The notes under the pieces: model-generated | The model's database searches: none | The model's input: only the letters and a program-made list of their open reading frames with translations | Told to the model about the DNA's origin: nothing | Program-made: the position numbers and the translations under genes | Origin: Thermoleophilia bacterium UBA6103 | GTDB lineage: Bacteria > Actinomycetota > Thermoleophilia > UBA2241 | DNA length: 64,000 nt | Direction: 5' to 3' | Assembly (NCBI GenBank): GCA_002423545.1 | Contig: DIWP01000046.1 | Span: 32,437-96,436, forward strand | Shown here: piece after piece, positions 1 through 58,658 of the stretch | Layout of the letters: each line of letters opens with the position of its first letter | Position numbering within the stretch: position 1 is the first letter of the stretch

Positions 1-1121
1 GCATCCTTCACGAGACGGCCGACAAGGGCGCCGCCGGCGCGATCGTCATCAGCGCCGGCGGCCGCGAGTCGGGCAGGCCGGAGTTCGACGGGGAGATCAC
101 GCGGATCGCCCGGGAGCGCGGCCTGCGCTTCTTCGGACCGAACATCCAGGGCGTCGCCTACGGTCCCAACCGCCTCTCGGCTGTCTTCTGGCCGGTCATC
201 ACCGAGCACGGCCCCCTCGCCGTCGTGGGGCAGAGCGGCACGGTGGTGGCGGCGATGAGCGACTGGGCACAGGACGACGGCCTCGGCGTGAGCGCCTCGG
301 TGAGCCTCGGCAATCAGGCCGACATCTGCGAGTCGGACATGATCCGGCTGCTCGCCGAGGACGAGCAGACGCGGTCGATCGCGCTCTACCTCGAGGGTCT
401 CGACGACGGTCCGCGCTTCGTGTCCGCGGTCAAGGACGTCGCCATGCGCACGCCGCTCGTCGTGCTCAAGTGCGGCCGCTCGCAGCGGGGTCGTGAGGCG
501 GTGGCCTCGCATACAGGCTCGCTGGCCGGCTCCGACAAGGTGTTCAGCGGCGTATGCCGCCAGTATGGGGTGGTCCGGGCCGAGGATTCGGAGAGCCTCT
601 ACGACGCCGCCAAGATCCTCGCCTGCATGCCGCCGCCGCGTGGCCGCCGCGTGCTGGTCATCTCCTCCTCGGGCGGCAGCTGCGCCCTGGCCGCCGACGC
701 CGGCGACGACCAGAGGCTCATCCTGCCCGATCTTCCCGACGAGTACGTGGCCGCCCTGCGGGACCTCAACCTCGCCGAGTGGGGCTCGTTCGCCAATCCG
801 CTGGATCTGGCCTCGATGTCGGTCGAGCACTTCCGGACCGCCGCCCGCATGGCCGATCGAGCCGATCTGGCCGACGTCATCCTGCTGATGTACGGCGATC
901 CCATCGTGGGGTCTGCCGAGCTGGCCGCCGAGCTGGTCGCCGAGCTGCGTACGTGTGTCTGCGCCGCCTACTACGGCGGCGGCGCCGTCGAGCAGACGGA
1001 GCGCCGCCGGATGCAGCGCGCCGGCGTGCCCGTGTTCCCCTCGCCGGAGCGCGCCATGAAGGCGATCGCGGCGGCCTGCTGGTATGCGGAACAACGCCGT
1101 GCGTGGGAGGCGGACCGATGA
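1..1121 (+). CDS. NDP-forming acyl-CoA synthetase (ADP-forming acetate--CoA ligase type), alpha / CoA-binding subunit; 5' end lies outside the window
   Basis: The reading frame is open from nt 1. The translation has the CoA-binding and succinyl-CoA-synthetase-like flavodoxin domain signature (…GPNIQGVAYGPN…, SLAGSDKVFSGVCRQYGVVRAEDSESLYD). The stop overlaps the next start (ATGA). Confidence 0.75.
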   Translation, partial: ILHETADKGAAGAIVISAGGRESGRPEFDGEITRIARERGLRFFGPNIQGVAYGPNRLSAVFWPVITEHGPLAVVGQSGTVVAAMSDWAQDDGLGVSASVSLGNQADICESDMIRLLAEDEQTRSIALYLEGLDDGPRFVSAVKDVAMRTPLVVLKCGRSQRGREAVASHTGSLAGSDKVFSGVCRQYGVVRAEDSESLYDAAKILACMPPPRGRRVLVISSSGGSCALAADAGDDQRLILPDLPDEYVAALRDLNLAEWGSFANPLDLASMSVEHFRTAARMADRADLADVILLMYGDPIVGSAELAAELVAELRTCVCAAYYGGGAVEQTERRRMQRAGVPVFPSPERAMKAIAAACWYAEQRRAWEADR

Positions 1122-1801
1122 GCGTGGAGATGGGCCAGAGAACGCGGATGCTCCTCGAGCCGGATGCCGCCACGCTTCTGGCGTCGTACGCCATCCCTTA
1201 CGTCGAGCACGGGATGGCGGCCACCGTCGAGGATGCCGTCGAGACAGCGGCTCGTATCGGCTATCCCGTGGTGCTGAAGATCGTCTCGCCGGACATCGTC
1301 CACAAGACCGAGGTGGGCGGCGTCGTGGTCGGGCTAGACGCCGAGCCGGCGCTGCGCGCCGGCTTCGAGGAGCTGCTGCGCCGGGTGGCCGCCGGCTGCC
1401 CCGGCGCGCAGATCGACGGTGTGCTGGTGGCGCGCCAGATTTCCTTTCGCCGAGAACTGATCGTCGGCGGCATCCGTGACGCGACCTTCGGCGCCACTGT
1501 CATGGTCGGCCTCGGCGGCGTGTTCGCCGAGGCGCTGGAGGACGTGGCCTTCCGCGTCGCGCCGCTGCGGCTCCGGGTCGGCCTCGACATGCTGCGCGAG
1601 CTCCGCGCCGCGTCTGTCCTGGCGGAGTTCCGGGGTGAAGCGGCGGTCGATCTCGAGGCGCTGGCCGGCGTGCTTGTCCGGGTGGGGGACCTGATGCTGG
1701 CTCAGGCGGACATCCGCGAGATCGACCTCAATCCGGTCGTTGCGTCGGCGGACGGCTGCGTCGCGCTCGATGCGCGTATCATTGCCGAGAAAGAAGCCTG
1801 A
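1118..1801 (+). CDS. ADP-forming acyl-CoA synthetase beta subunit (ATP-grasp domain)
   Basis: ATG at 1118 overlaps the upstream stop (ATGA) and is in frame with track ORF 554..1801. ATP-grasp motifs are present (GYPVVLKIVSPDIVHKTEVGGVVVGL, REIDLNPV). Confidence 0.75.
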   Translation: MSVEMGQRTRMLLEPDAATLLASYAIPYVEHGMAATVEDAVETAARIGYPVVLKIVSPDIVHKTEVGGVVVGLDAEPALRAGFEELLRRVAAGCPGAQIDGVLVARQISFRRELIVGGIRDATFGATVMVGLGGVFAEALEDVAFRVAPLRLRVGLDMLRELRAASVLAEFRGEAAVDLEALAGVLVRVGDLMLAQADIREIDLNPVVASADGCVALDARIIAEKEA

Positions 1802-1836
1802 GACACCGTGACGTCGACGATGAGGACGGAGATCAG

Positions 1837-2505
1837 ATGAGTCCGGCAGAGGCGGCGCCACAGGCGGTCGTTCACCGTCGGCGGGCGAGCGATCGAGTGC
1901 TGGCGGAGTTGCGGCGGATGATCATCACTCTCGAGCTGCCGCCGGGCACGGTGGTCACCGAGGAATACCTGTGCACCGTTCTCGACTGCTCGCGCACACC
2001 GCTGCGCGAGTCGTTGCGGATCCTGGCACACGAACACCTGATCGTCGCGGTGCCCCATCGTGGGGTGTCCATCGCCGAGCTCAGCATCGTGCAGTTCTCT
2101 GCCCTCGTCGAGGCTATCGAGGGGGTGGAGTCGTTCCTCGCCCGCCTGGCGGCCGAGCGCATCTCGGACGAGCAGCTGGCGGAGATGGATGAGATGGTGC
2201 GGCAGTCGGAGGGGGCGGCGACCGACGAAGATCTGGCCCAGATCGCGGAGCTGGATTTCCGCTTCCATCACATCCTGGGCGAGGCGGCCGACAATCAGCT
2301 GATGGTCGAGACGCAGGACGTCCTGCACCGGCTCTCGCAGCGTTTCGTCTTCATGGGCTTTCGACGCGCCGGCACCGCCGCCGGTGCCGTCGCCGATCAC
2401 ACGCGCATAGTTGCCGCTCTCCGAGGCCGGGATCCGGATGCCGCCGAATCGGCCGTTCACGAGCATATGCACAATGCCCGCGAGCGCATGAGGGCGGCGT
2501 TGTGA
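1837..2505 (+). CDS. GntR/FadR-family transcriptional regulator (FCD domain)
   Basis: N-terminal winged-helix HTH (LAELRRMIITLELPPGTVVTEEYLCTVLDCSRTPLRESLRILAHEHLI) and a C-terminal FCD-like helical domain. Confidence 0.8.
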   Translation: MSPAEAAPQAVVHRRRASDRVLAELRRMIITLELPPGTVVTEEYLCTVLDCSRTPLRESLRILAHEHLIVAVPHRGVSIAELSIVQFSALVEAIEGVESFLARLAAERISDEQLAEMDEMVRQSEGAATDEDLAQIAELDFRFHHILGEAADNQLMVETQDVLHRLSQRFVFMGFRRAGTAAGAVADHTRIVAALRGRDPDAAESAVHEHMHNARERMRAAL

Positions 2506-2540
2506 ACTGACCGACCGGGCCGCCGGGCCGATCGTCTGCG

Positions 2541-3299
2541 CTACGCGTCGTCCGAGGAGCGGTCCAGTGCCTCCGCGAGGACCTCGCCGACCATCAGTCG
2601 CGTGCCGGCCAGGTGGCTGCGCATCGCCTCTTCCGCCCGCTCCGGCTCGCGATCCCGCACCGCCTCGTAGATCTGCGTGTGCGCGTCGCGCAACTCCTCC
2701 GCGCGATGCGTGCGCAGGAGCAGGCCTACCGGCAGGAACAGCTCGCGACGCACAGCCAGCATCGCGTCTGCGAGATGCCGGCTGTGCGCTGCGGCCGCCA
2801 GAGCGTCGTGGAGCACGGCGTTCCAACGCAGGAACGCCGTGTGACTGTCCGTGGCCGCCGCCGTCCACGCCGATTCGATCTCCCGCAGCTCGCTCTCGCT
2901 GCGCCGCCGCGCCGCCAGGGACGCGATATTCGTCTCGACGATCTCGCGGTACTCCCAGAGGTCGTCCACCTCGTCACCTATGGCCCGCATCCAGTCCGTC
3001 CAGCGGCGGGTGAGAGTCTGGACGTCCTCTACCCGCGACCCACCGTGCGCTCCTCGGCTGGTGACGATGAAGCCGGCACTCTCCAGCGACTTGAGAGCGA
3101 CCCTGAGGGTGAGCACTGAGATGCCCAGATGGTCCGCCAGTTGTCGCAGCGGCGGCAGCCAGTCCCCGGGAGTGAGCTCTCCCGAGTAGATCATCCCGCG
3201 GATCAAGTCGGCGGTGATGTCGCTCGGGTTCACAGCGCTCACGGGTGCCTGAGGGACCGAAGAAGACGAGAAGGCAGAGGCGTCTCTCACCGGCTTCAC
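2541..3299 (-). CDS. GntR/FadR-family transcriptional regulator (FCD domain)
   Basis: HTH motif (LPPLRQLADHLGISVLTLRVALKSLESAGFIVTSRGAHGG) followed by an FCD-type C-terminal domain. Convergent with the upstream GntR gene. Confidence 0.8.
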   Translation of the reverse strand: MKPVRDASAFSSSSVPQAPVSAVNPSDITADLIRGMIYSGELTPGDWLPPLRQLADHLGISVLTLRVALKSLESAGFIVTSRGAHGGSRVEDVQTLTRRWTDWMRAIGDEVDDLWEYREIVETNIASLAARRRSESELREIESAWTAAATDSHTAFLRWNAVLHDALAAAAHSRHLADAMLAVRRELFLPVGLLLRTHRAEELRDAHTQIYEAVRDREPERAEEAMRSHLAGTRLMVGEVLAEALDRSSDDA

Positions 3300-3401
3300 A
3301 ACGCATCGCCCGCTTTCATTGCGGAAGTCCTTGACGCAAATGAATCATACAGTTACTCTCTGACACAATAAGACCCTGCACCACCGATCGGAGGGGCCAC
3401 T

Positions 3402-4340
3402 GTGGCAGTATCGGCGTTCCGGGATGGCGAGTACGTGCCGCTGAACGAGGTCACGGTCAGCGTCCAGAGCCACGCCTTCCAGTACGGCACCAGCGTGTTC
3501 GAGGGTATCCGCGGGTACTGGGACACCGCAGCATCGGACCTCCTTCTCTTCCGCCCCGACCGGCACTACGCACGACTGCATCGCTCTGCCCGATTCTACG
3601 GCATGACCCTGCCGTACTCCGTCGACGACCTGTGCGACATCACCGCCGAGCTGCTCGTGCGGGACGGCGTTCGCGAGGACGCCTATGTGCGGCCGGTCCT
3701 CTTCAAGGACACGAATGCCATCGGGGTCTGGCGCCCCGACCTGACGGACAGCTTCGTCGTCTTCCACGTTCCCATGGGCAAGTACCTGGCCGATGAGGCG
3801 ATCCGATGCTGCGTCAGTACATGGCGGCGGCCGGAGGGCAACGCGGCCCCCGTCCGGGCCAAGGTCGGCGGCCTGTACGCGGCCATGGCCCTGGCACGCT
3901 ACGAGGCGATGCTGCAGGGCTTCGACGAGGCGATCACACTGACGGCGACGGGGCACGTGGCGGAAGGGACCGGCGAGAACGTCTTCCTCGTCCAGGACGG
4001 CCGGCTGGTGACCCCGGCCGCCGGAGAGGACCTGCTCGCCGGCATCACCCGCGAGTGCGTCATCGAGCTGGCGGAGGCAGAGCTCGGCCTCGAGGTGGTC
4101 GAGCGCTCGGTAAACCGCAGCGAGCTGTACGTGTCGGACGAGATCTTCCTGGTCGGTACGGCGGCCGAGGTCACGCCCGTGGCGGAGGTCGACCGCCGTC
4201 TCGTCGGCGACGGACAGACCGGACCGATCACGGCCGACCTGAAGGACCTCTTTTCGCGCGTGGTCCGTGGCAGGGTCGCGAAGTATGGGCACTGGTGCTT
4301 TCCGGTCCGCACCCAGGTTCCGCAGGCGGTCCGGCCGTGA
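3402..4340 (+). CDS. ilvE: Branched-chain amino acid aminotransferase (class IV PLP aminotransferase)
   Basis: Class IV aminotransferase motifs (FQYGTSVFEGIRGYW, ENVFLVQDGRLVTPA, LAGITRECVIELA). GTG start. Confidence 0.8.
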   Translation: MAVSAFRDGEYVPLNEVTVSVQSHAFQYGTSVFEGIRGYWDTAASDLLLFRPDRHYARLHRSARFYGMTLPYSVDDLCDITAELLVRDGVREDAYVRPVLFKDTNAIGVWRPDLTDSFVVFHVPMGKYLADEAIRCCVSTWRRPEGNAAPVRAKVGGLYAAMALARYEAMLQGFDEAITLTATGHVAEGTGENVFLVQDGRLVTPAAGEDLLAGITRECVIELAEAELGLEVVERSVNRSELYVSDEIFLVGTAAEVTPVAEVDRRLVGDGQTGPITADLKDLFSRVVRGRVAKYGHWCFPVRTQVPQAVRP

Positions 4341-6571
4341 TCGAAATAGTGGTCCACGGGCGCGGTGGGCGCGGGGGCGTCACGCTGGCGAAGCTGATCG
4401 CCGGCATGTACTTCCGGCGAGGAAGCTACGTGCAGGCGTTCGGCGTCTACGGCGCCGAGCGCTCCGGCGCGCCGGTCCAGGCGTACGTCCGGGTGGATAC
4501 GGAGGAGATCACCGCGCACCTGCCGATCACCGAGCCCGACCACATCGTCGTCATCGATCCGTCGCTCATCACGGCAGCTGTCGCGTCGGGCCTGAGGGCG
4601 GGCGGGTGGCTGGTGTTGAACTCACCGCTGGAGCCCGCCGCGTTCGCTCAAACGTTCCCAGGGTGCTGTGTTGCAACGCTCGACGCGAACGCGATCGCGT
4701 CGGCCAATGGACTCGGGAGCCCGGCCCTGCCCATCGTCAACACGACCATGCTCGGTGCGGCCGCCAGGTTGTTCGGCCTGCACGTGGCCGACGTCGAGGG
4801 TGCGCTCGACGATGTCGGCCTGAAGGGCGGCAACCCGGCCGCCGCGCGGGCGGCCTATGACTCCGTGCTGACGGCGGCGATGCCCGGTAAGGTCGTCCGC
4901 GTCGCGCCGCAGTTGCCGCCGCGGTCGCTCGGCTTCCTGGACGATGGCGTCGGTGGCCTTCCCACCATCCACACCGGGCAGTGGGCGTCGCGCCGCCCGC
5001 ACAGCCGCGAGCTCGCCGCGGTGTGCAGCGAGGCGTGTCCCGCCGGCAATGACGTACGCGGCTTCCTGCAGGCGGCGGCGCGGGGCGACTACGACGCCGC
5101 GCTGTCCCTGATCCTCGAGACATCGCCGTTCCCCGGTATCTGCGGTCGCGTCTGTCCGGCGCCCTGCATGGCCGGCTGCAACCGCGCCCAACTGGACGAA
5201 GCGGTGAACGTGCGCGAGGTGGAGCGCGCCGTTGCAGGGCGCGGCCGGCTACCGGAGCCCGGGAAGCCCCGGCGCGCCGAGCGTGTCGCGGTGGTCGGGT
5301 CTGGCCCGGCCGGCCTGAGCGCCGCCTATCACCTGGGGCGCTTGGGCTACGGCGTCACGGTGTTCGAGGCCGACCCCGAGAGCGGTGGGCTGCTGCGCCG
5401 CGGCATACCGGCGTACCGCCTGCCGCGCGACATACTAGATCGCGAAGTGGATTTCGTGCTGCGGCACGGCGTCGACATCGAAACGGGTCACCCCGTCGAC
5501 CGCGCGGAGCTGGCGCGACTGCGCAGGCGATACGCCGCCGTGTTCGTGGCGACCGGTTTGCAGGGCACGCCGTCGCTCGAGCTCGGCGGCGCCTGCAACG
5601 GCGCGGTGCTCCAGGGGCTCGACTTCCTCGAGAGGGCCTGTCGAGGCGAGGCCTCGGTCGCCGGCGACAGCCTGGTCGTGGTGGGCGGTGGCAACACGGC
5701 GATGGATGCCGCGCGGACGGCGCTCCGTCTGGGCGCCCGGGACGTGCGCGTCGTCTACCGGCGCACCCGTGACGAGATGCCGGCGATCGCCGAGGAGGTC
5801 GACGAAGCTCTCGAAGAGGGGGTCGAGCTCCGCGAGCTGGAAGCGCCTGTGCGGATCTGCGAGGCAGCGACGGGCCCGACGCTCGTCTGCCGACGCATGC
5901 GGCTGGGCAAACCGGACGGATCCGGCCGGCGTCGCCCCGTGCCCGTGGAAGGCGACGAGGCTCTCGTCGAACTGCCGTGCGACCGTCTGCTGCTCGCCCT
6001 GGGCCAATCGCCGGATGTCTCCGTGCTGCCGAAAGGCGCGGAGATCAGGGGGTGCCGGATCGCCGGCGAAAAAGAGGACGCGCCGCTCTTCGTCGGTGGC
6101 GACCTGGCGACGGGAGAGGGGACGGTGGCGGCGGCCGTGGGCAGCGGCCGGCTGGCCGCCGCACGCATCCATGCCCTGCTCGACGGCAGCGAGACGGAAG
6201 AACCGCAACCGCACGAGCTCGCCGGCCCCGACGTCATCGCGCTCGACCGGTTCCCGAAAACGGCCCAGCACAAGAGCGCCATGCTGGCCGTGGACGAGCG
6301 ACGGCGTACTTTCCTGGAGGTCCGCCGCGGCTTCGTCGACGAGGAGGGCGAGGACGCGACCGCCGCCGAGGCGGCGCGCTGCCTCAGCTGCGGCGCCTGC
6401 AACGAGTGCGAGACCTGTGTCGCCTACTGTCCCGAGGGGGTCGTCTGCCCCGCCGGCGGCCACCGGTACCTCTTCGACTACGAGTACTGCAAGGGCTGCG
6501 GGCTCTGCGCGGCACAGTGCCCGCGCGGCGTGATCGTCATGGAGGACTGCGCGGAGGAGGTCTGCACGTGA
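4337..6571 (+). CDS. 2-oxoacid:ferredoxin oxidoreductase gamma subunit fused to a GltD-like NAD(P)H/FAD/[4Fe-4S] oxidoreductase domain and a C-terminal delta (2x[4Fe-4S] ferredoxin) subunit
   Basis: GTG at 4337 (GTGA overlap with the ilvE stop) is in frame with track ORF 3806..6571. Residues upstream of it are an alternative-frame artefact over ilvE. N-terminus is KOR gamma (VIEIVVHGRGGRGGVTLAKLIAGMYFRRGSYVQAFGVYGAERSGAP). The middle has GltD-type Cys clusters (CSEACPAGNDV, CGRVCPAPCMAGCN) plus FAD/NAD Rossmann folds (VAVVGSGPAGLSAAYHL, VVVGGGNTAMDAART). The C-terminus has CLSCGACNECETCVAYCP and CKGCGLCAAQCP. Confidence 0.75.
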   Translation: MIEIVVHGRGGRGGVTLAKLIAGMYFRRGSYVQAFGVYGAERSGAPVQAYVRVDTEEITAHLPITEPDHIVVIDPSLITAAVASGLRAGGWLVLNSPLEPAAFAQTFPGCCVATLDANAIASANGLGSPALPIVNTTMLGAAARLFGLHVADVEGALDDVGLKGGNPAAARAAYDSVLTAAMPGKVVRVAPQLPPRSLGFLDDGVGGLPTIHTGQWASRRPHSRELAAVCSEACPAGNDVRGFLQAAARGDYDAALSLILETSPFPGICGRVCPAPCMAGCNRAQLDEAVNVREVERAVAGRGRLPEPGKPRRAERVAVVGSGPAGLSAAYHLGRLGYGVTVFEADPESGGLLRRGIPAYRLPRDILDREVDFVLRHGVDIETGHPVDRAELARLRRRYAAVFVATGLQGTPSLELGGACNGAVLQGLDFLERACRGEASVAGDSLVVVGGGNTAMDAARTALRLGARDVRVVYRRTRDEMPAIAEEVDEALEEGVELRELEAPVRICEAATGPTLVCRRMRLGKPDGSGRRRPVPVEGDEALVELPCDRLLLALGQSPDVSVLPKGAEIRGCRIAGEKEDAPLFVGGDLATGEGTVAAAVGSGRLAAARIHALLDGSETEEPQPHELAGPDVIALDRFPKTAQHKSAMLAVDERRRTFLEVRRGFVDEEGEDATAAEAARCLSCGACNECETCVAYCPEGVVCPAGGHRYLFDYEYCKGCGLCAAQCPRGVIVMEDCAEEVCT

Positions 6572-7743
6572 GCCGCGCATACGTGACCGGGAATCACGCC
6601 GCCGGCCACGCGCTGGCTGCCGCCGGTGAGGCCAACCGCCGTGCGCGCGGCTGCTGCGGCGGCGCGTACCCCATCACGCCGCAGACCGAGATCATCGAGT
6701 ATCTCATGGCGCATGCCTTCGCCAGAGGGAGCGTGGTGCCGGTCGAGTCCGAGCACAGCGCGATGGGGGTGTGCATCGGCGCCGCGCTCGCCGGCGCCCG
6801 CGCCTTCACCGCCAGTTCGGCCAACGGCCTCCTCTACATGATGGAGAACGTGTTCGCCGCGGGCTACTACCGCCTGCCGGTGGTGATGGTCGTGTCGAAC
6901 CGGACGCTTGGACCGCCCTGGAACATCTGGGCGGACCAGGGCGACAGCCTCGCACTGCGCGACGCCCCTTGGCTGCAGTTCTACTGCGACTCGCACCAGG
7001 ATCTGGTCGATACGATCCTGGTAGCGTTCCGGATCGCCGAGGACCTACGGGTCCTCCTGCCGGCGATCGTCGCCCAGGACGGCTTCCTTCTCTCGCACAC
7101 GCAGATGGTGGTCGATCTTCCCGAGCAGGAACTGGTCGACGGCTATCTGCCGCCGCTCGACCTGCCGCATCATCTGGACTTCGGGCGCCCGCGGATGTAC
7201 GGCGGAATGACGTGGCCGCGCGACACGCAGCGGCAGCGCGCGGACATCCAGGCCGCCATGGACCGGGTGCCCGAGGTGCTCGACGAGGCGCTCGACGACT
7301 TCGAGCGGTCGTTCGGCCGCCGGCCGGTCTCGGCCTTCTCCGCGGAGCAGACCGGCGACGCCGACATCGTCGTGGTCGCCTGCAACACGCTCGCGGAGAC
7401 GGCCAGAGAGGTCGTCCGGGCCCGCCGGGCCGCGGGTGAGCGTGTGGGGCTGGTCCGGGTGAAGCTCTTCCGGCCGTTCCTCAGGCAAGCGCTCGTCGAC
7501 GCGGTGGGCCCGGCCAGTCGGGTCGCGGTCCTCGACCGCAACCACTCGCCGGGCTCGGGTGGCATCTTCTGGAACGAGATCGCGACAAGCCTGCGATCCC
7601 GTCCGGACGTGGTGCTGCAGGACTACATCGTCGGGCTCGGCGGCAGCGACGTGGCGCCGGCCGTCATCGACGGCATCATCCGGGACGTCGGCACCCGCGA
7701 CACCGCCGCCGATCCGATCTTCATCACGGAGGCGGTCGCATGA
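6568..7743 (+). CDS. 2-oxoacid:ferredoxin oxidoreductase alpha subunit
   Basis: GTG start with GTGA overlap, in frame with ORF 5977..7743. PorA/VorA-like sequence (GNHAAGHALAAAGEANRRARGCCGGAYPITPQTEIIEY…SEHSAMGVCIGAALAGARAFTASSANGL). Confidence 0.85.
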   Translation: MSRAYVTGNHAAGHALAAAGEANRRARGCCGGAYPITPQTEIIEYLMAHAFARGSVVPVESEHSAMGVCIGAALAGARAFTASSANGLLYMMENVFAAGYYRLPVVMVVSNRTLGPPWNIWADQGDSLALRDAPWLQFYCDSHQDLVDTILVAFRIAEDLRVLLPAIVAQDGFLLSHTQMVVDLPEQELVDGYLPPLDLPHHLDFGRPRMYGGMTWPRDTQRQRADIQAAMDRVPEVLDEALDDFERSFGRRPVSAFSAEQTGDADIVVVACNTLAETAREVVRARRAAGERVGLVRVKLFRPFLRQALVDAVGPASRVAVLDRNHSPGSGGIFWNEIATSLRSRPDVVLQDYIVGLGGSDVAPAVIDGIIRDVGTRDTAADPIFITEAVA

Positions 7744-8723
7744 ACGTGACCGGTGTTGAGGAGGAGGTCCACAGCCACACCGAGCACGCGCTGTGGCGTG
7801 CCGGCAACGGCGCCTGCGCCGGGTGTGGCATGTCACTCGGCCTGCAGTGGGTGGACCAGGCGCTCGACGGCGAGAAGCCGACCATGGTGGTGCCCGCCTG
7901 TTGCGCGGTCGTCACGCCGGGTTCCTACCCGACGACCGCCTTCGGCGTGCCGGCCGTGGCCACCACGTTCGCGAGTTCTCCGTCGGTGGCCACGGGTGTC
8001 AGCCGGGTGCGTCAGATGAACGGCGAGGACATCCCGACGATCTGTTGGGCCGGAGACGGCGGCACCTACGACATCGGCCTGGCCACGATCTCGGGGGCGG
8101 CCGAGCGCAACGAGGACATCATCTACATCTGCTACGACAACGAGATCTACGGCAACACCGGCGGGCAGCGCAGCAGCGCGACCTTGCCGGGTGCGAGGAC
8201 CAGCACCACGCCCGCCGGCAAGCACGAGCCCAAGAAGGACATCATGGCGGTGCTTGTCGCGCACCGCATCCCCTATGCGGCCACCCTCTCGCTGGCGCAC
8301 CGCGACGACTTCCTGCGCAAGATCCGGGTGGCCCGCCGACTGCGGGGGTTTCGCTTCATGGTGATGCTGTCGCCGTGCCCGGCAGGCTGGAAGTCGGACC
8401 CGGCCGAGGGCATCGACCTGGTGCGGGCGGCTGTGGGATGCGGCCTGTTCCCGCTCTACGAGGTCTTCGACGGCCGCCGCTACCGCATCAACGCCCGTCC
8501 GGACGGCACCGCTCTGGAGGACTACCTGTCGCGGCAGGGCCGCTTCAGGACGCCCTCCTTCGATCACGCCGCCACGCGCGCCGCCATCGCCGAGCAGTGG
8601 GCCTACCTGGATGCCATGGAGGCGGCCTTCCCGGCCGGGCCCCGTGAGGGGTCGGACGTCCCGGCCGCTCCGCCACCCCCTCCCATAGCCCCGGAGGCGA
8701 ACGGACCGGTGACGGGGCCGTGA
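7740..8723 (+). CDS. 2-oxoacid:ferredoxin oxidoreductase beta subunit (TPP-binding)
   Basis: ATGA overlap with the alpha subunit. TPP and Fe-S motifs (CAGCGMSLGL, GDGGTYDIGLATISGAAERNEDIIYICYDNEIYGNTGGQ). Confidence 0.85.
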   Translation: MNVTGVEEEVHSHTEHALWRAGNGACAGCGMSLGLQWVDQALDGEKPTMVVPACCAVVTPGSYPTTAFGVPAVATTFASSPSVATGVSRVRQMNGEDIPTICWAGDGGTYDIGLATISGAAERNEDIIYICYDNEIYGNTGGQRSSATLPGARTSTTPAGKHEPKKDIMAVLVAHRIPYAATLSLAHRDDFLRKIRVARRLRGFRFMVMLSPCPAGWKSDPAEGIDLVRAAVGCGLFPLYEVFDGRRYRINARPDGTALEDYLSRQGRFRTPSFDHAATRAAIAEQWAYLDAMEAAFPAGPREGSDVPAAPPPPPIAPEANGPVTGP

Positions 8724-9040
8724 AGCACACCCTCCGCATCATCGTGCTGGACCGGCCATCCGTCCTGGCCCGCGTGGCCGGACAGGTAGGGCGCCGCAGC
8801 GTCAACATCGATCACTTCACGGCGCGCAACATCGCCGACGGCAAGACGGTGATCACCATCGGCATCGACACCGACGAACACCTGGCCGAACGGCTCGCGA
8901 AGGGGATCGCCCGGCTCATCGACGTCCTCGATGTGGACTGGAAGCCCGACGTATCGCGTCCGGACGGGCCGGTGGCCATAGCCGAAGATCGACGGACGGA
9001 GCGCTCCGTAGAGGAGGACAGATGCCCGCGAACAAGATGA
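8720..9040 (+). CDS. Stand-alone ACT-domain protein (AHAS small-subunit-like regulatory fold)
   Basis: GTG with GTGA overlap to the KOR beta stop. HTLRIIVLDRPSVLARVAGQVGRRSVNIDHFTARNIADGKTVITIGIDTD is typical of IlvH-type ACT domains. The 3' end overlaps the next gene by 19 nt. Confidence 0.6.
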   Translation: MKHTLRIIVLDRPSVLARVAGQVGRRSVNIDHFTARNIADGKTVITIGIDTDEHLAERLAKGIARLIDVLDVDWKPDVSRPDGPVAIAEDRRTERSVEEDRCPRTR

Positions 9041-9705
9041 TCCCGCTCGATGAGGCGGTGGCGCGTGTCGAGTCCGGCATGACGCTCGCGATGGGCGGGT
9101 TCCTGGGTCAGGGCTCTCCGCTCACGTTGATCCGGTCCTTGCGCGACGGAGACGTCGAGGACCTGACGATCTACGCCAACGATGCCGGCTTCGGCGACGC
9201 CGGTATCGTCGAGCTCATCCGGGCAGGCAAGGTCAGGACGCTCTACTGCTGCCATGCCGGCTACACGCCGGCGGTGAACGAGGCGGTCGAGCGGGGACTG
9301 GTCGAGCTTGTGTGGACACCACAGGGCAACCTCATCGAGATGCTGCGCTGTGGCGGCGCCGGCCTCGGGGGGTTCCTCACGCCGACCGGTGTGGGCACCT
9401 CAGTCGCGGAGGGCAAGGAGCACGTCACGGTCGACGGCAAGGTCTACTTCTGGGAGCGCGCCGTGCGGGTCGACGTGGCACTCGTGCAGGCGCATGCCGG
9501 TGACACCCTGGGCAACCTTTGTCACCGCGGGACCGCCCGCAACTACAACCCGATCGTCGCGAGCTGCGCCGACTACGTGATCGCCGAGGTCGAGCACGTG
9601 TGCTGCCCGGGCGAGCTCGACCCGGAGAAGATCCAGACGTGCGGCGTCTTCGTGGACGCGGTGGTCCGTACGACCGGCGACAACGCGTCGCGGCACGCGG
9701 CGTAG
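9022..9705 (+). CDS. 3-oxoacid CoA-transferase subunit A (AtoD/ScoA family)
   Basis: Family I CoA-transferase alpha-subunit motifs (GMTLAMGGFLGQGSP, GNLIEMLRCGGAGLGGFLTPTGVGT). Confidence 0.85.
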   Translation: MPANKMIPLDEAVARVESGMTLAMGGFLGQGSPLTLIRSLRDGDVEDLTIYANDAGFGDAGIVELIRAGKVRTLYCCHAGYTPAVNEAVERGLVELVWTPQGNLIEMLRCGGAGLGGFLTPTGVGTSVAEGKEHVTVDGKVYFWERAVRVDVALVQAHAGDTLGNLCHRGTARNYNPIVASCADYVIAEVEHVCCPGELDPEKIQTCGVFVDAVVRTTGDNASRHAA

Positions 9706-9717
9706 GAGGAGGGTGCG

Positions 9718-10401
9718 ATGTCGGCCGGCTCGACCCGGGACACCAGGTGCACGATCGCCGCGCGGGCGGCTCGTGAGCTCAAGGACGGCGACGTCGTCAA
9801 CCTCGGCGCCGGCATCCCGATGCTGGTCGCCAACTACGTGCCGGACGGACGCGATGTCGTGATCCAGGCGGAGAACGGCATCGTGCGCTGTGGGCCGGTG
9901 TCGGCACCCGGCACGGAGGAGCCGGACCGGCGCAACGCCGGCAATCTGCCGGTCGAGCTTCTTCCGGGCGGCTGCTACGTCGACAGCGCCACCTCCTTCG
10001 GGATGATTCGCGGAGGGCACATCGACGCCACCATGATCGGCACGCTGCAGGTGGACGGCGACGGCGACATCGCCAACTGGCAGATGCCGGGGCGCAAGAT
10101 CGGCATGGGCGGCGCCATGGATCTGGTCGCCGGAGCCCGGCGCGTCTACGTGCTCACCGAACACTGCGCCAAAGACGGATCGCCGAAGCTCGTGGAGCGT
10201 TGCACCCTGCCGCTGACGGGTGCCGGCGAGTGCGATGTGCTCATCACGGAGCGCGCGCTGTTCCGCCGTTCACCCGAGCGGGGCTTTGTGCTGGAGGAGG
10301 TCGCGCGAGGCTATGCTCTCGACGACATCCGGAGCGCCACCGGCATGCGTTATGAGGTCGCCGAGGATGTGAGGCTGGAGGCCTACGGTCCGGCGAAGTG
10401 A
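9718..10401 (+). CDS. 3-oxoacid CoA-transferase subunit B (AtoA/ScoB family)
   Basis: Beta-subunit motifs (VNLGAGIPMLVANYVP, ENGIVRCGP, GGAMDLVAGARRVYVLTEH). Confidence 0.85.
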   Translation: MSAGSTRDTRCTIAARAARELKDGDVVNLGAGIPMLVANYVPDGRDVVIQAENGIVRCGPVSAPGTEEPDRRNAGNLPVELLPGGCYVDSATSFGMIRGGHIDATMIGTLQVDGDGDIANWQMPGRKIGMGGAMDLVAGARRVYVLTEHCAKDGSPKLVERCTLPLTGAGECDVLITERALFRRSPERGFVLEEVARGYALDDIRSATGMRYEVAEDVRLEAYGPAK

Positions 10402-10414
10402 CCCGTCTCCCCGT

Positions 10415-10426
10415 CCGCAGCTGCGG
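10415..10426 (+). terminator. 12-nt perfect palindrome CCGCAGCTGCGG 14 nt after the operon stop; possible terminator-like hairpin
   Basis: Seen directly after the ctfB stop (10399-10401). There is no U-tract, which is common in high-GC genomes. Confidence 0.2.
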
Positions 10427-10619
10427 GCAACCATCCCGGACCGCCCAGATGAATGCGGCATGTCCGACTGTCCCGCTCCCTGCCGGCCGCGCCGCCTGCC
10501 CGAGGCGGAAGCATCCACGCTCACCTCGATCCGGACCCGATGAGCGAGTTGCGGTGGCCGCGGGGTCTGCCGCTGTTGCGACGCGCGTTCGTCTCAGGAA
10601 GACTCGAAGAGACCTGCTG

Positions 10620-11090
10620 AAGGCCGGCGGCCGTCGTGGGCTGCGGAGTCCAGGCGCGGACCAGCCTCATGGCTCTCGTCGAGGAGATGCCATCGCTGGC
10701 GGAGGTGCGGTGCTACGACTTGTATCCGGAGGCGGCGCGCAGATTCGTAGCCGACATGGGAGCGACGTTCCCCGCACTGCGCTTCATCGTCTGCATGTCT
10801 GCCGCAGAGGCTGCGCGTCCGGCGGACGTGGTGGTCACCGCCGTCCCGATCGTCGTGGACCCCGCACCGACTCTGGATGGCGGGCAGCTCAAGGAAGGCG
10901 CTCTTGCATACCTGCGGTCATCACGGGCGATCTCGGCGAGCTGGCCGCCGGTCTGGCAGCCGGGCGCGAGAGCGACGCCGAGCGCATCTTCTGCATGAAC
11001 ATGGGCATCGCCGTCGACGATCTGGTGACGGCACGGATCCTCCACCAGCGCGCGTGCCAGCGAGGCGTCGGGGTCCGTCTGCCACTCTGA
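10620..11090 (+). pseudogene. Ornithine cyclodeaminase / mu-crystallin family gene remnant (5'-truncated, frameshifted, with an internal deletion)
   Basis: Frame 1 (10636..10998) encodes the Rossmann part (GCGVQARTSLMALVEEMPSLAEVRCYDLYPEAARRFVADM…AEAARPADVVVTAVP) but is preceded by an in-frame TGA at about 10617. The OCD C-terminus (ITGDLGELAAGLAAGRESDAERIFCMNMGIAVDDLVTARIL) is in a different frame (ORF 10398..11090). About 40 aa expected between the two parts are missing. Confidence 0.55.
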
Positions 11091-48607: not shown

Positions 48608-49703
48608 CGGGCCGATCATCTCGGCCCGCGACCTGAGCGTCACCCTCGGCGGTTGCACGCTCGTGCACGCCGAGGCGTTCGATGTGCTCCCCGGTCGGAC
48701 GCACGTGGTGATGGGACCCAACGGCGCCGGCAAGAGCACGCTGCTGCGTGCCGTCGGCGGCCTGATCAAGGCCACCGGCACGCTGGAGCTGGCCGGCAAG
48801 CCGGTGTGCTCGGGACGCGATCGCGCCGTGCTGCGGCGCGCCACCGCCTCCGTGTTCCAGAAGCCCTACCTGCTCTCGACGACGGTCCTGGGCAACGTCG
48901 AGATCGGCCTGCGACTGCACGGCATCGGCGCCCGGGAGCGCGGCCGGCGGGCGCGCGCCGCGCTCGAACTGCTCGGCATCGAGCACCTGGCCGACCGCCG
49001 CCGCGACGGGCTCTCCGGCGGTGAGGCGCAGCGCGTCAGCATCGCTCGAGCCCTGGCGGTGGAGCCGCAGGTGCTCTTCCTCGACGAGCCGATGGCTTCG
49101 CTTGACCCGCCGACGCGGCGCTCCCTGATGACAGACCTCTTCGACGTGTTCTCCCAGCGTTCGGTCTCGGCGGTGTGGGTGACGCACGATCGCGAAGAGG
49201 CGGCGGCGGTCGCCGACCACGTGACCTTCCTCACCGACGGCCGTGTGCGGCAGCAGGGCACGGCCTCAGAGGTGTTCGGCCGGCCGCAGAGCGAGGAGGT
49301 CGCCGGGTTCCTCGGCATGGAGACGTCGTTCGAGGGAGTCATCGAGGCGCAGGACGGCGCCGTGTGCCTGGTGCTGGTCGACGGCACGACGCTTGTCGTC
49401 GGTGAGGCCGAGCCTGGACCGGCTCTCGCCTTCGTCTTCCCGGAGGACGTCGTACTGTTGCGTCACCTGCCGGAGTCCGGCGAGACCAGCCTGCGCAACT
49501 GCCTTGAGGGCCGCGTGGCCGGCGTCCGGTCCAGCGGCCGCCTGCGGCTGGTCGACATCGTGCGCGGCGACCTGCGCATCGTGGCCATGGTGACGCAGGC
49601 GGCGCTCGACGATCTGCAGCTGGGAGTCGGGGATGCCGTCGTGGCAGGCTTCAAGGCGTCGGCCGTGCACGTGCTGCCGCGGCATCATGGACACGCGTCC
49701 TGA
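48600..49703 (+). CDS. tupC: ABC transporter ATP-binding protein with C-terminal TOBE domain
   Basis: Walker A GPNGAGKST, signature LSGGEAQR, Walker B LFLDEP, plus a C-terminal Mo/W-binding TOBE-like domain. Confidence 0.75.
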   Translation: MPDGPIISARDLSVTLGGCTLVHAEAFDVLPGRTHVVMGPNGAGKSTLLRAVGGLIKATGTLELAGKPVCSGRDRAVLRRATASVFQKPYLLSTTVLGNVEIGLRLHGIGARERGRRARAALELLGIEHLADRRRDGLSGGEAQRVSIARALAVEPQVLFLDEPMASLDPPTRRSLMTDLFDVFSQRSVSAVWVTHDREEAAAVADHVTFLTDGRVRQQGTASEVFGRPQSEEVAGFLGMETSFEGVIEAQDGAVCLVLVDGTTLVVGEAEPGPALAFVFPEDVVLLRHLPESGETSLRNCLEGRVAGVRSSGRLRLVDIVRGDLRIVAMVTQAALDDLQLGVGDAVVAGFKASAVHVLPRHHGHAS

Positions 49704-51840
49704 GGGCCGGTCGATCGTCCTCCGGGGAAGGAGCGCGGTCGGCCGCTGAGACCATCACCACGGCAACGTCGTCGCTGAACGGGCCGCAGATGGTCTCGAT
49801 GCCGCGCAGGATCTTGAGGAGACCGGCCTCCGACAGGTTGTCCAGCTCGTATCCGCCGAGGATCTCGCGCAGTCGCTCTTCGCCGAAGCGTTCCGGCCTG
49901 CCGGGCGCGATGCGGCCCTCGATGAGGCCGTCGGTGTAGAAGACCAGGCTCCAGTCGGCGGGCAGACGCAGGGCTTCGGGCGGATCGAGCGGCAGGTCGG
50001 CGGCGCCGAGGGGAGGCTGTGCGCGGCTGACGATCGAAGCCACGTTCCCCCCCGCGCTCAGAAGTGGCGGCGGATGCCCGAGGTTGAGGAACGCCATCTC
50101 GGCGCGATCCGGATCGATCCAGGCCATGAACGATGTGGCGAACACCTCGGGCGCCGCCCGCTCACGCCGCATCACATCGTCGAGCGCGTGCGCGATGGTG
50201 ACGGGGTCGGCGCCGGCGACCACAAGCGCTTCCCAGCCGGAGCGCAGCGTCGCCCCCAGGGCGGCGGCATCGGGGCCGTGTCCGGACACGTCGCCGACGA
50301 GCACTGCCACGCCGGCGTCGCCGCGGTCGAGCACGTCGATGAAGTCGCCACCCAGCTCGAGGCGTTGTTCGCTGGGCTGGTAGACGCAGCGCACGAGCAG
50401 CCCCGGATGGTCCACCGGCAGGTTCGGCAGCAGGCTGCCGGCGAAGCGGCGATGCACGGACTCGGCGCGCTGTTGTTCCGCCAGCCGGCGGGTCTCGACG
50501 AGCGCCACCCCGACTTGATCGCAGAAACGCTGTACGAGCGCGAGCGTCCGTTTGCTCGGCTCGCGGCGCTCGGTCGACCAGCCGAGCACGAGCAGGCTGT
50601 CGGCCCGGCCCCCGACGCTGATCGGCGCCCGCAGCACCGTCCGCAGACCGAGCATGGCGTGCATGTCGCAGCCCTCTGCATCCCCGTCGGCGCCGCAGGT
50701 CGCGCTCCCGCAGTCGATCCCGCAGCGCACAAAGGTCGGGATACGTCGCGCGAGCTGCTCGGCCAGGGCGCCGTCGCGCGGGATGGGCAGCCACTGCCGG
50801 TGCAGGACCGGCGGCGCCGGCTCGACCGCCACCAGCCGCAGCGCCTCGTCGTCGACGTGGAACAGCATCGCGGCGTCGCAGTCGAACAGTCGCCGTGCAC
50901 CTTCACAGGCGACCGTCCCCACGTCACGCGGGTCGCCTTCTTCGTACAGCGACGGCGTCAGCTCCAGTAGCTGATCGAGCGCCCGGCTCATCGCTTCCTC
51001 CTCACGCTGGGCGGAGCGGGCGGCCTTCTCGCTGAGCTGCAGGTTCTGCACGGCCAGCGCGTGTGGCCGGGTCAGGGAGTCCTGCACGACCGCCTGGTAG
51101 ATCAGCATCGCGGAGAGCAGGAGGAACACGTGGCCCAGCAGGTTGGGCCACGTCAACGGACCTACGTAGAACGTGAACCACAACTCGGCGACGATGCGCG
51201 CCACGAGAGCGGCCGTGAGGTAGCGGAACGCGCCCCGTGCCAGCAAGTCGCGCTTGCGCCACAGCACGATGACGGCGGCCGCCAGGATGCCGCAGATGAC
51301 GTACTCGGCGACGATCTTGAACGTGGTCAGCCCGCGGCCATCGACAAACGCCGACGGGAAGACCCGCCACCAGTAGACGGCGGCGATGACCAGCCCGTCG
51401 AGGACGAGGTACGCCACGACGATGGGTGCCATGCGCAGGCGATGCCCGAGCACGAACGGTGCGATGAGGAACGAGACGCTCCCAACGAATGTGGCCGCCA
51501 GCCAGAGCTGGGTCGGAGGGTCCGACGATGGCGAGATGAGATCGAGGCCGGCGTAGTCGACGAGGTGGACGACGTGCAGCAGCGCCGTCGCCATGAGGGC
51601 CGTACCGAGGAAGACGGGGAAGTCGTCGTCGAGGAACTCGCGCAGCGTCCAGGCGATGATGAAGACGCAGAAGGCGACCGTGGCGTAGGCCAGCTCGACG
51701 AGCGAATGGAAGAGGTTGAACGAGACCAGGCTGGTCAGGACGAGGAGCACGAAGGCGAGGACAGCCACGGCGGCCGCGACACCACCATCGTAGGCGAGCC
51801 GCCCGGGTCCCCGCCGTTGTGTACCGACGGCCGTCTGCAT
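49651..51840 (-). CDS. Membrane sensor (multi-TM) - GAF - PP2C (SpoIIE/RsbU-type) serine/threonine phosphatase
   Basis: Start by aa index (MQTAVG…). Seven to eight TM helices, a GAF-like domain containing a Cys cluster (CGIDCGSATCGADGDAEGCD), and a C-terminal PP2C (GGDFIDV…VLVGDVSGHG…FYTDGL). Confidence 0.75.
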   Translation of the reverse strand: MQTAVGTQRRGPGRLAYDGGVAAAVAVLAFVLLVLTSLVSFNLFHSLVELAYATVAFCVFIIAWTLREFLDDDFPVFLGTALMATALLHVVHLVDYAGLDLISPSSDPPTQLWLAATFVGSVSFLIAPFVLGHRLRMAPIVVAYLVLDGLVIAAVYWWRVFPSAFVDGRGLTTFKIVAEYVICGILAAAVIVLWRKRDLLARGAFRYLTAALVARIVAELWFTFYVGPLTWPNLLGHVFLLLSAMLIYQAVVQDSLTRPHALAVQNLQLSEKAARSAQREEEAMSRALDQLLELTPSLYEEGDPRDVGTVACEGARRLFDCDAAMLFHVDDEALRLVAVEPAPPVLHRQWLPIPRDGALAEQLARRIPTFVRCGIDCGSATCGADGDAEGCDMHAMLGLRTVLRAPISVGGRADSLLVLGWSTERREPSKRTLALVQRFCDQVGVALVETRRLAEQQRAESVHRRFAGSLLPNLPVDHPGLLVRCVYQPSEQRLELGGDFIDVLDRGDAGVAVLVGDVSGHGPDAAALGATLRSGWEALVVAGADPVTIAHALDDVMRRERAAPEVFATSFMAWIDPDRAEMAFLNLGHPPPLLSAGGNVASIVSRAQPPLGAADLPLDPPEALRLPADWSLVFYTDGLIEGRIAPGRPERFGEERLREILGGYELDNLSEAGLLKILRGIETICGPFSDDVAVVMVSAADRAPSPEDDRPALRTRVHDAAAARARPTP

Positions 51841-51889
51841 GCTTGCGATGCTAGCACGGAAGCGCCGTTCGGCTACTATCGTGTGAGCC

Positions 51890-53792: not shown

Positions 53793-58658
<4,866 letters not shown>

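Follow-up and report, generated by a model that had tools for sequence, protein, structure and literature searches.

Introduction

Can a 2-oxoacid:ferredoxin oxidoreductase (OFOR) deliver its electrons to NAD(P)+ through a flavoprotein built into one of its own subunits? This question is raised by a gene at positions 4337–6571 (+) of a 64,000-nucleotide (nt) stretch of DNA from Thermoleophilia bacterium UBA6103 (assembly GCA_002423545.1, contig DIWP01000046.1, positions 32,437 to 96,436), which was analysed over its whole length and is referred to below as the window. An earlier note, made from the sequence of the window, described the gene as a three-module fusion of an OFOR gamma subunit, a module resembling the glutamate synthase small subunit (GltD) and an OFOR delta subunit. 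Our analysis indicates that the product of this gene and the alpha and beta subunits encoded behind it are likely to form an NADP+-linked, ferredoxin-independent 2-oxoacid oxidoreductase.

A conserved 744-residue fusion gene

The gene is one continuous open reading frame (ORF) of 744 amino acids (aa) in a window of 70% G+C, which also belongs to the 140-kb contig TOLCLC_10006851 of JGI metagenome 3300002498. Its frame is open upstream to position 3806, where it overlaps an aminotransferase gene in another frame. Because all homologs in the alignment begin at the GTG codon at 4337 (MIEI...) and the additional upstream stretch overlaps the aminotransferase gene, this GTG was taken as the start. 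Pfam searches matched POR (the gamma domain; residues 10–174, 98 bits), Fer4_20 (residues 228–300, 57.8 bits, profile positions 30–105 only), Pyr_redox_2 (residues 316–603, 76.6 bits) and a Fer4 dicluster (residues 687–733). Together with NCBIfam scans, these matches confirmed the coordinates and module sizes given in the earlier note, the presence of the gamma, GltD-like and delta modules in the order claimed, and the assignment of the middle one as a GltD-like FAD/NAD(P) module.

Database searches returned more than 120 proteins of 738–757 aa, from independent assemblies, that align to 97–100% of the fusion protein with 54–89% identity, and more distant full-length homologs with identities down to 34%. 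With residues 120–300 as a junction query against 1.84 billion cluster representatives, 12 matches at E ≤ 1e-30 were obtained, and about two dozen of the best 150 matches in this collection spanned the gamma-to-flavoprotein junction. The G+C content at third codon positions (GC3) is 0.82–0.90 in each 300-nt block of the ORF, and this uniformity excludes a change of frame. Given the even frame signal, the homologs from independent assemblies and an identical architecture in six genomes, a sequencing frameshift or assembly chimera uniting three genes was rejected as having practically no chance of being true. The fusion of the gamma, flavoprotein and delta parts is a real gene and represents a conserved family. 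Its parts are as follows (window coordinates, strand, description).

4337..6571, +, complete fusion (744 aa), made up of gamma, the delta arm, the permuted NfnB/DsrL-like flavoprotein and the delta dicluster
4337..4891, +, residues 1–185, OFOR gamma (domain III), from Pfam POR, TIGR02175 and PDB 9bt4_E
4892..4948, +, residues 186–204, poorly conserved linker, variable in the homolog alignment and of low confidence in the model
4949..5023, +, residues 205–229, delta N-terminal arm (GGLPTIHTGQWASRRP...) with W216 and P221, from the joined-construct profile test
5024..5236, +, residues 230–300, flavoprotein iron-sulfur (Fe-S) domain (Fer4_20) without its first segment, from Pfam and the alignment to NfnB 4ylf_B
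5264..6190, +, residues 310–618, flavin adenine dinucleotide (FAD) and NAD(P)H Rossmann domains, from Pyr_redox_2, PRK12771 and Foldseek
5756–5764, +, YRR motif Y474-R475-R476, inside the Rossmann part
6191..6289, +, residues 619–651, linker returning the chain to the Fe-S domain, variable in alignments
6290..6397, +, residues 652–687, displaced N-terminal Fer4_20 segment (DERRRTFLEVRRGF...EAARCLSCG) carrying C682 and C685, from alignment and profile tests
6398..6544, +, residues 688–736, delta-type 2x[4Fe-4S] core (C688, C691, C694, C698P; C718, C721, C724, C728P), from NCBIfam and PDB 9bt4_G

A delta subunit split by the flavoprotein

The gamma module matched the NCBIfam model PorC_KorC (TIGR02175) with 131.7 bits, against a cutoff of 81.1, and PDB chain 9bt4_E with E = 8.6e-24. 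An AlphaFold model of the fusion protein was confident (mean predicted local distance difference test (pLDDT) score of 84.4, and mostly 85–97 in the gamma module) except for the linker from gamma to the delta arm, where pLDDT was about 50 (residues 190–225).

Delta-type sequence is found on both sides of the flavoprotein. For the C-terminal 124 residues, the five best NCBIfam matches after PRK12771 were all OFOR delta families, and they covered only the second two-thirds of each profile. The core aligned with PDB chain 9bt4_G (E = 2.6e-7), and all eight of its cysteines are invariant in 80 homologs as well as in 12 homologs of 34–54% identity. The arm ahead of the flavoprotein has the consensus TGxWRxxxP in distant homologs, the N-terminal motif of PorD, and W216 and P221 are invariant in the same 12 homologs. 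When residues 191–229 were joined to residues 688–744, the PorD_KorD score rose from 52.7 to 67.2 bits (cutoff 60.05; profile positions 10–75), and all six delta profiles gained 10–14.5 bits. A control with a shuffled arm scored 56.8 bits on PorD_KorD and did not extend the match. Since the construct of arm and core exceeds the cutoff while the shuffled-arm control does not, the delta subunit is split, with its N-terminal arm before the flavoprotein and its dicluster core after it. The arm and 2x[4Fe-4S] core that characterize delta in the four-subunit POR/VOR type are present in split form only.

A circularly permuted NfnB/DsrL-type flavoprotein

The inserted flavoprotein itself is circularly permuted. 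In its N-terminal Fe-S domain the canonical C-x2-C-x4-C-x3-CP motif is reduced to C-x3-CP (C230, C234), and the missing Fer4_20 segment lies after the flavin domains, a position on which three tests agree. Specifically, residues 652–686 align with residues 13–43 of Thermotoga NfnB (4ylf_B). The displaced segment matches positions 161–201 of PRK13984 and 192–237 of AegA, while residues 228–616 match positions 196–607 and 233–652 of these profiles, respectively. Finally, a de-permuted construct, in which residues 641–687 were joined to residues 230–620, raised the Fer4_20 score from 59.8 to 77.2 bits and extended the matched profile positions from 30–105 to 5–105. The permuted layout is also visible in alignments to the solved StnC and NfnABC chains. 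The order of modules in the earlier note holds, with the refinement that delta is split around a permuted flavoprotein.

The cluster ligands were mapped by means of a published ligand list for NfnB (PMC7596348) and the alignment to 4ylf_B. The predicted ligands are C682, C685, C230 and C281 for the outer (distal) cluster and C234, C273, C277 and E296 for the FAD-proximal cluster. These eight NfnB-type ligands and Y474-R475-R476 are invariant in the 80 homologs and in the 12 of 34–54% identity, and the GSGPAG and GGGNTAMD motifs are invariant in the 80. As an internal control for ligand invariance, C269, the equivalent of a non-ligand cysteine of NfnB, is variable among the homologs. C682 and C685 lie just ahead of the first delta cysteine, and C685 is three residues from C688. 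The YRR motif is an NADP(H) determinant that forms the 2'-phosphate site of NfnB and is present in the NADPH-using DsrL-2 (PMC7596348), so its occurrence in the fusion flavoprotein points to a preference for NADP(H).

All features of the GltD/NfnB/DsrL family were found, namely Fer4_20 with two predicted [4Fe-4S] sites, the FAD and NAD(P)H Rossmann domains, and YRR. The closest profile was PRK12771 (GltD-like plus C-terminal dicluster, 566 aa), which matched residues 211–736 over profile positions 31–563 with 492.1 bits and the Rossmann part alone with 288.6 bits. The best PDB matches of the AlphaFold model in Foldseek were NfnA of NfnABC, StnC and NfnB (E = 1e-41 to 6e-30), and the target-normalised template modelling (TM) scores to 5jca_L and 4ylf_B were 0.73–0.75.

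Predicted electron path

The two remaining subunits of a four-subunit POR/VOR-type enzyme are encoded directly behind the fusion gene.

6568..7743, +, OFOR alpha (POR_N and PFOR_II; Pfam, 198.1 and 79.9 bits)
7740..8723, +, OFOR beta (TPP_enzyme_C, 68 bits; Pfam, thiamine pyrophosphate (TPP) motif and cluster cysteines)

The domains typical of alpha in this type, POR_N and PFOR_II, are thus both present, as is the POR domain of gamma, for which TIGR02175 scored above its cutoff. Beta has the TPP signature GDG...N, here GDGGTYDIG...YDNEIYGNTGG, and the four proximal-cluster cysteines (C26, C29, C54/C55 and C213, as read from the translation). A search of the operon and the whole 64-kb window found no separate delta gene, other OFOR or GltD copy; therefore, the C-terminal dicluster of the fusion would have to act as delta.

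We propose that the genes at 4337–8723 encode a four-subunit POR/VOR-type enzyme in which gamma and delta share one polypeptide and a permuted NfnB/DsrL-type flavoprotein is inserted in delta between the arm and the first cluster cysteine. Electrons from a 2-oxoacid and coenzyme A (CoA) would enter at the TPP of beta, pass to its [4Fe-4S] cluster and then through the delta clusters (first C698/C718/C721/C724, then C688/C691/C694/C728). From there they would move to the outer flavoprotein cluster (C682/C685/C230/C281), the FAD-proximal cluster (C234/C273/C277/E296) and FAD, and would leave as hydride to NADP+. The outer cluster of NfnB is the docking site of free ferredoxin. In the fusion, this cluster would be capped covalently by the ferredoxin-donating cluster of delta, presumably that of the first delta motif, as in the structure of Desulfovibrio africanus pyruvate:ferredoxin oxidoreductase (PFOR). 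No soluble ferredoxin should be needed, because C685 and C688 are three residues apart and both docking sites are joined covalently. The path would run downhill, from about −500 mV for 2-oxoacid oxidation to −320 mV for NADP+ reduction.

A route of electrons from a 2-oxoacid to NAD(P)+ through the built-in flavoprotein is, as a prediction, well founded, because the dicluster is the sole delta in the window and the cluster ligands, the Glu ligand and YRR are invariant. The direction of electron flow, NADP+ specificity, ferredoxin independence and substrate proposed here are all read from the sequences.

Operon, substrate and neighbourhood

The other genes of the operon and those upstream of it are listed below.

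1..1121, +, ADP-forming acyl-CoA synthetase alpha, 3' part (CoA_binding/Succ_CoA_lig; gene call with Pfam; the gene spans window positions -252..1121)
1118..1801, +, ADP-forming acyl-CoA synthetase beta (ATP-grasp_5; gene call with Pfam)
1837..2505, +, GntR/FCD regulator (gene call with Pfam)
2541..3242, -, GntR/FCD regulator, divergent from the operon (gene call with Pfam)
3402..4340, +, branched-chain aminotransferase (BCAT; class IV), first operon gene (Aminotran_4, 162 bits; PRK06606, 341.5, cutoff 279; ilvE_I, 306.5, cutoff 245.55)
8720..9040, +, ACT-domain protein of 106 aa, resembling the acetolactate synthase small subunit (ACT_AHAS_ss, 35.8 bits)
9022..9705, +, CoA-transferase subunit A (Pfam CoA_trans; TIGR02429, 209 bits, above cutoff)
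9718..10401, +, CoA-transferase subunit B (TIGR02428, 255.9 bits, above cutoff)

In the GTGA at 4337–4340, the aminotransferase gene ends (TGA) where the fusion gene begins (GTG); a second overlap of this kind, at 6568–6571, links the TGA of the fusion gene to the GTG of alpha. Overlaps of 4 nt also occur between alpha and beta and between beta and the ACT gene, and the latter overlaps CoA-transferase A by 19 nt. Because successive genes overlap, the region from 3402 to at least 9705 appears to be one translationally coupled operon. A scan of the operon for promoters and terminators gave nothing above chance. At the end of the operon lies an ORF (10398–11090, +) of which only the last ~55 residues match ornithine cyclodeaminase/mu-crystallin (profile positions 265–311 of 314), and the source annotation has a gene of only 109 aa there. 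It is probably a gene remnant.

Branched-chain 2-oxoacids are the probable substrate in UBA6103, because the oxidoreductase genes are coupled to BCAT, the best match of beta is a VOR beta and acyl-CoA-consuming enzymes are encoded nearby. Among NCBIfam models, beta scored highest with 3-methyl-2-oxobutanoate dehydrogenase beta (PRK11864, VOR beta; 301, cutoff 405) and lower with PorB (268, cutoff 405). The best matches of alpha were PorA_Arch (332.6, cutoff 550) and VOR alpha (288, cutoff 646). This assignment is weakened by two findings: alpha and beta fall below every equivalog cutoff, so that the models give no substrate class, and the planctomycete loci of the fusion lack BCAT. For the fusion family as a whole, the substrate may be pyruvate or other 2-oxoacids. 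Since the operon joins aminotransferase, oxidoreductase, ACT protein and CoA-transferase to an upstream acyl-CoA synthetase, it would oxidize Val/Leu/Ile-derived 2-oxoacids to acyl-CoA, CO2 and NADPH, with subsequent recovery of ATP or CoA. The ACT protein is kept after beta in the actinobacterial relatives (L006, L084, L085) and is absent in Phycisphaerales. It resembles a subunit of acetohydroxyacid synthase (AHAS) and is a candidate regulatory subunit that would sense Val/Leu/Ile on behalf of a different TPP enzyme.

The operon is set in a neighbourhood of amino-acid catabolism. Upstream (window positions 1–3300 and the contig before the window) are genes for a proline racemase, a BKACE enzyme, a class-III aminotransferase, an MTTB-family methyltransferase and an M20 peptidase, in addition to the ADP-forming acyl-CoA synthetase and the two GntR/FCD regulators. 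Proline dehydrogenase, succinyl-CoA ligase and malic enzyme are encoded downstream. Two signalling genes of the window are unrelated to the fusion: a 1621-aa hybrid histidine kinase at 53793–58658 (+) with multiple PAS, HisKA, HATPase, receiver and Hpt domains, and an ordinary 825-aa MASE3-SpoIIE phosphatase at 49651–52128 (-).

Alternative functions

Two other modes of action were considered for the fusion and its partner subunits. The complex could be an ordinary ferredoxin-dependent VOR or POR, in which the flavoprotein serves as a ferredoxin:NADP+ reductase only as an overflow valve or for protection against oxygen or redox stress, and most electrons would still go to free ferredoxin. We regard this as unlikely: although all parts of a four-subunit OFOR are complete, and unfused GltD-like genes adjoin OFOR genes elsewhere (L049 and L054; Propionibacterium, PMC7650540), the C685–C688 spacing would hold the exit cluster of delta at the entry of the flavoprotein with little room for docking of ferredoxin, and this arrangement is invariant across phyla.

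Operation in reverse or with bifurcation is also improbable. In such a scheme, the hydride of NADPH and a second high-potential partner would drive reductive carboxylation of branched-chain acyl-CoA and thereby the synthesis of amino acids from volatile fatty acids, or oxidation would be split between NADP+ and ferredoxin. Consistent with this, the nearest folds are subunits of bifurcating enzymes (NfnB, NfnABC and StnABC), the Glu ligand typical of the proximal cluster of NfnB is kept (E296), the CoA-transferase, ADP-forming acyl-CoA synthetase, OFOR and aminotransferase steps are all reversible in principle, and ACT proteins of the AHAS kind usually serve to regulate biosynthesis. However, no NfnA-like or HydB/NuoF-like partner, second flavin site or NAD site was found in or beside the operon at any locus examined, and the nearest relative to have been characterised, DsrL, works as a simple NAD(P)H:acceptor oxidoreductase. 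Moreover, NADPH alone (−320 mV) is too weak for 2-oxoacid synthesis (about −500 mV), and the neighbours (proline dehydrogenase, peptidase, ADP-forming acyl-CoA synthetase and malic enzyme) are catabolic.

Direct, ferredoxin-free transfer to NADP+ is therefore the preferred reading, and several points must be set against it. The native C-terminal delta part alone scored 44.5–52.7 bits with PorD_KorD, just below the cutoff of 60.05, and the fusion narrowly misses the cutoff of 516 for PRK12771, its closest model, so that it is not a formal member of that family. The medial and distal positions in the predicted delta path depend on an analogy with the structure of D. africanus PFOR. Passing low-potential electrons to NADP+ forfeits about 35 kJ/mol, which is unusual in an energy-limited anaerobe. 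Finally, the NfnB-type FAD is the bifurcating site of NfnAB, and a more complex electron flow is conceivable.

Distribution and synteny

Homologs of the fusion are found in Planctomycetota, Actinomycetota and Ignavibacteriota. Alpha and beta come immediately after the fusion gene in each of the six genome loci that were compared, which represent three phyla: four from Planctomycetota/Phycisphaerae, one from Thermoleophilia (the closest, 62% identity) and one from Melioribacter (37%). The same order also occurs in metagenome contigs. The actinobacterial clade, to which the UBA6103 locus belongs, keeps the upstream ADP-forming acyl-CoA synthetase, the two GntR regulators and BCAT as well as the downstream ACT protein, and the Phycisphaerales locus has just the three oxidoreductase genes. 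The usual gene order of archaeal por/vor operons is gamma-delta-alpha-beta, and the [gamma..delta]-alpha-beta order of the fusion operon matches it.

Kinship with DsrL

Stand-alone proteins of 553–583 aa consisting of the flavoprotein plus the dicluster share 39–46% identity with the fusion and have the same layout, including the motif RCxSCG. OFOR genes were sought beside them, and dsr genes were found instead: in five of seven loci these proteins adjoin dsrAB, dsrN or dsrMK-type genes, and on this basis they were identified as DsrL. The three modules named in the earlier note are all there, but they were not freshly joined, since the unit of flavoprotein and dicluster pre-exists and is common to DsrL.

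DsrL has been characterised as an NAD(P)H:acceptor oxidoreductase that reaches its partner through a C-terminal ferredoxin domain, and its YRR-bearing form, DsrL-2, uses NADPH (PMC7596348). It shares with the fusion the sequence of Fe-S domain, FAD/NAD(P) domains, linker and C-terminal 2x[4Fe-4S] domain as well as RCxSCG and YRR, and the logic is alike in that a pyridine nucleotide is wired to a partner enzyme via a built-in ferredoxin. DsrL differs in that its partner is DsrAB, a gamma domain is lacking and the TGxW motif of the arm is no longer intact.

The fusion could accordingly be regarded as a partner protein of dissimilatory sulfite reductase, a DsrL that became fused to gamma by chance. 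The 39–46% identity of its flavoprotein-plus-dicluster part to proteins encoded beside dsrAB would suit this explanation, but every locus shows the gene in translational coupling with OFOR alpha and beta, and the fusion retains the TGxW motif of the arm, which DsrL has lost. Of the published criteria for DsrL, the first (a dsrAB locus or organism) and the third (no linkage to POR/VOR) do not apply: the gene is flanked by BCAT and OFOR genes, the neighbours examined included no NIR_SIR gene, and the DsrL study, which had come across DsrL-like genes beside POR/VOR genes, excluded them from DsrL by definition (PMC7596348). The explanation is thus very improbable.

RCxSCG is invariant in DsrL (L009–L012, L019), where it stands two residues ahead of the C-terminal ferredoxin cysteines (residues 681–686 of the fusion). 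Judging from the permuted layout, its cysteines probably supply ligands three and four of the "N-terminal" distal cluster, two positions that had been given to Ser/Thr and Cys/Arg (PMC7596348). A tentative scenario, which we consider possible rather than likely, is that a delta subunit captured a permuted NfnB-like flavoprotein between arm and first cluster and so gave rise to a portable module connecting NAD(P)H to a partner. Fused to gamma, the module would be a ferredoxin-independent branched-chain 2-oxoacid:NADP+ enzyme, possibly under ACT control; freed from the OFOR, it would be DsrL, with the "missing" ligands supplied by the RCxSCG cysteines.

Two further observations concern other relatives. 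A Calditrichaeota metagenome-assembled genome (MAG) encodes a stand-alone arm-flavoprotein-dicluster protein with a perfect PorD-type KTGSWR arm (L008:5347-7059), next to genes for rubrerythrin, a Memo/AMMECR1 fusion and a spermine-synthase-like protein; no OFOR or dsr genes were found nearby. In an Acidobacterium MAG (L049:2693-7269), a 767-aa ORF matches OFOR alpha and beta, an apparent alpha-beta fusion, and is followed by a 288-aa ORF (possibly NfnA-like) and a canonical unpermuted 470-aa NfnB-like gene, a different type of association between OFOR and Nfn genes. The GltD-like genes near OFOR alpha and beta in L049 and L054 are ordinary, unpermuted and of the NfnB type.

Implications

If the proposed function is correct, the fusion would provide bacteria with a route from 2-oxoacids (pyruvate or branched-chain) straight to NADPH in anaerobes, in Phycisphaerae, other Planctomycetota, Thermoleophilia-like Actinomycetota and Ignavibacteriota. 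Metabolic reconstructions that score every POR/VOR as a ferredoxin reducer would then misjudge redox balance, hydrogen yield and energy conservation. The enzyme would also be a compact, ferredoxin-free oxidoreductase for engineered NADPH supply. The layout of split delta and permuted flavoprotein ties the OFOR, NfnB/GltD and DsrL families together and offers a testable explanation for the cluster ligands of DsrL in RCxSCG.

Comparison with known systems

There appears to be no earlier description of a POR/VOR-type enzyme whose gamma is joined to a delta with a permuted flavoprotein inside it, nor of the distribution of the fusion enzyme or its kinship with DsrL. No characterisation of a gamma-flavoprotein-delta fusion was found in the literature, a weak negative because subscription journals lay mostly outside the search. 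The concept is less new than the earlier note implied, given the precedent of Azoarcus evansii and the DsrL study. NAD(P)+-linked OFORs are already known as a concept from A. evansii 2-oxoglutarate:NADP+ oxidoreductase (KGOR), phenylglyoxylate dehydrogenase and eukaryotic pyruvate:NADP+ oxidoreductase. OFOR-linked relatives of DsrL have likewise been seen, though not studied, as we conclude from their exclusion in PMC7596348.

KGOR of A. evansii has been purified, and its flavoprotein subunit is placed in the GltD family by PMC10134865; the work of Ebenau-Jehle, Boll and Fuchs (2003, J Bacteriol 185:6119) on this enzyme is cited there and in PMC8163825. According to these accounts, KGOR resembles the proposed enzyme as a TPP/Fe-S OFOR that reduces NADP+ instead of ferredoxin with the aid of a GltD/NfnB-family subunit, and by this analogy it is a functional precedent for the proposed mechanism. 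The two differ in that KGOR acts on 2-oxoglutarate and the fusion flavoprotein is joined to gamma in a POR/VOR-type enzyme. KGOR is reportedly built on KorAB, with two subunits to which the flavoprotein is added as a third, separate one. Phenylglyoxylate dehydrogenase is named in NCBIfam as an NADH-dependent OFOR; its PadF was considered as a GltD-like subunit and rejected, since NCBIfam names PadF as delta.

Canonical PorABCD/VorABCD enzymes (e.g., Methanosarcina acetivorans PFOR, PDB 9bt4) have all four subunit parts, from alpha to delta, in common with the fusion operon, as well as the TPP motif and cysteines of beta. In contrast, gamma and delta are fused here, a flavoprotein of ~460 residues interrupts delta and the predicted acceptor is NADP+. 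NsoC, StnC and NfnA of NfnABC (PDB 8oh5_C, 9bov_A and 9n5u_A) are the best matches of the flavoprotein in both sequence and fold. For NsoC and StnC, PMC7483475 (citing Toth 2008) puts forward the idea that a NuoG-like Fe-S host took up a GltD-like module, with split cysteine motifs on either side. The fusion resembles NsoC and StnC in that a GltD-like module lies in an Fe-S host, which here is OFOR delta. The NsoC/StnC/NfnA complexes, unlike the fusion, have a NuoG/formate-dehydrogenase-like host and are bifurcating transhydrogenases with NuoE/F-like partners, none of which is encoded at the fusion locus.

The eukaryotic pyruvate:NADP+ oxidoreductase of Euglena and Cryptosporidium combines PFOR with an NADP+-reducing flavoprotein and uses no free ferredoxin, and the fusion is like it in the predicted outcome, the joining of an OFOR to a flavoprotein that reduces NADP+. 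In the eukaryotic enzyme this flavoprotein is a cytochrome-P450-reductase-like module with flavin mononucleotide (FMN) and FAD at the C-terminus of a single-chain PFOR, whereas in the fusion it is an Fe-S flavoprotein inserted in delta.

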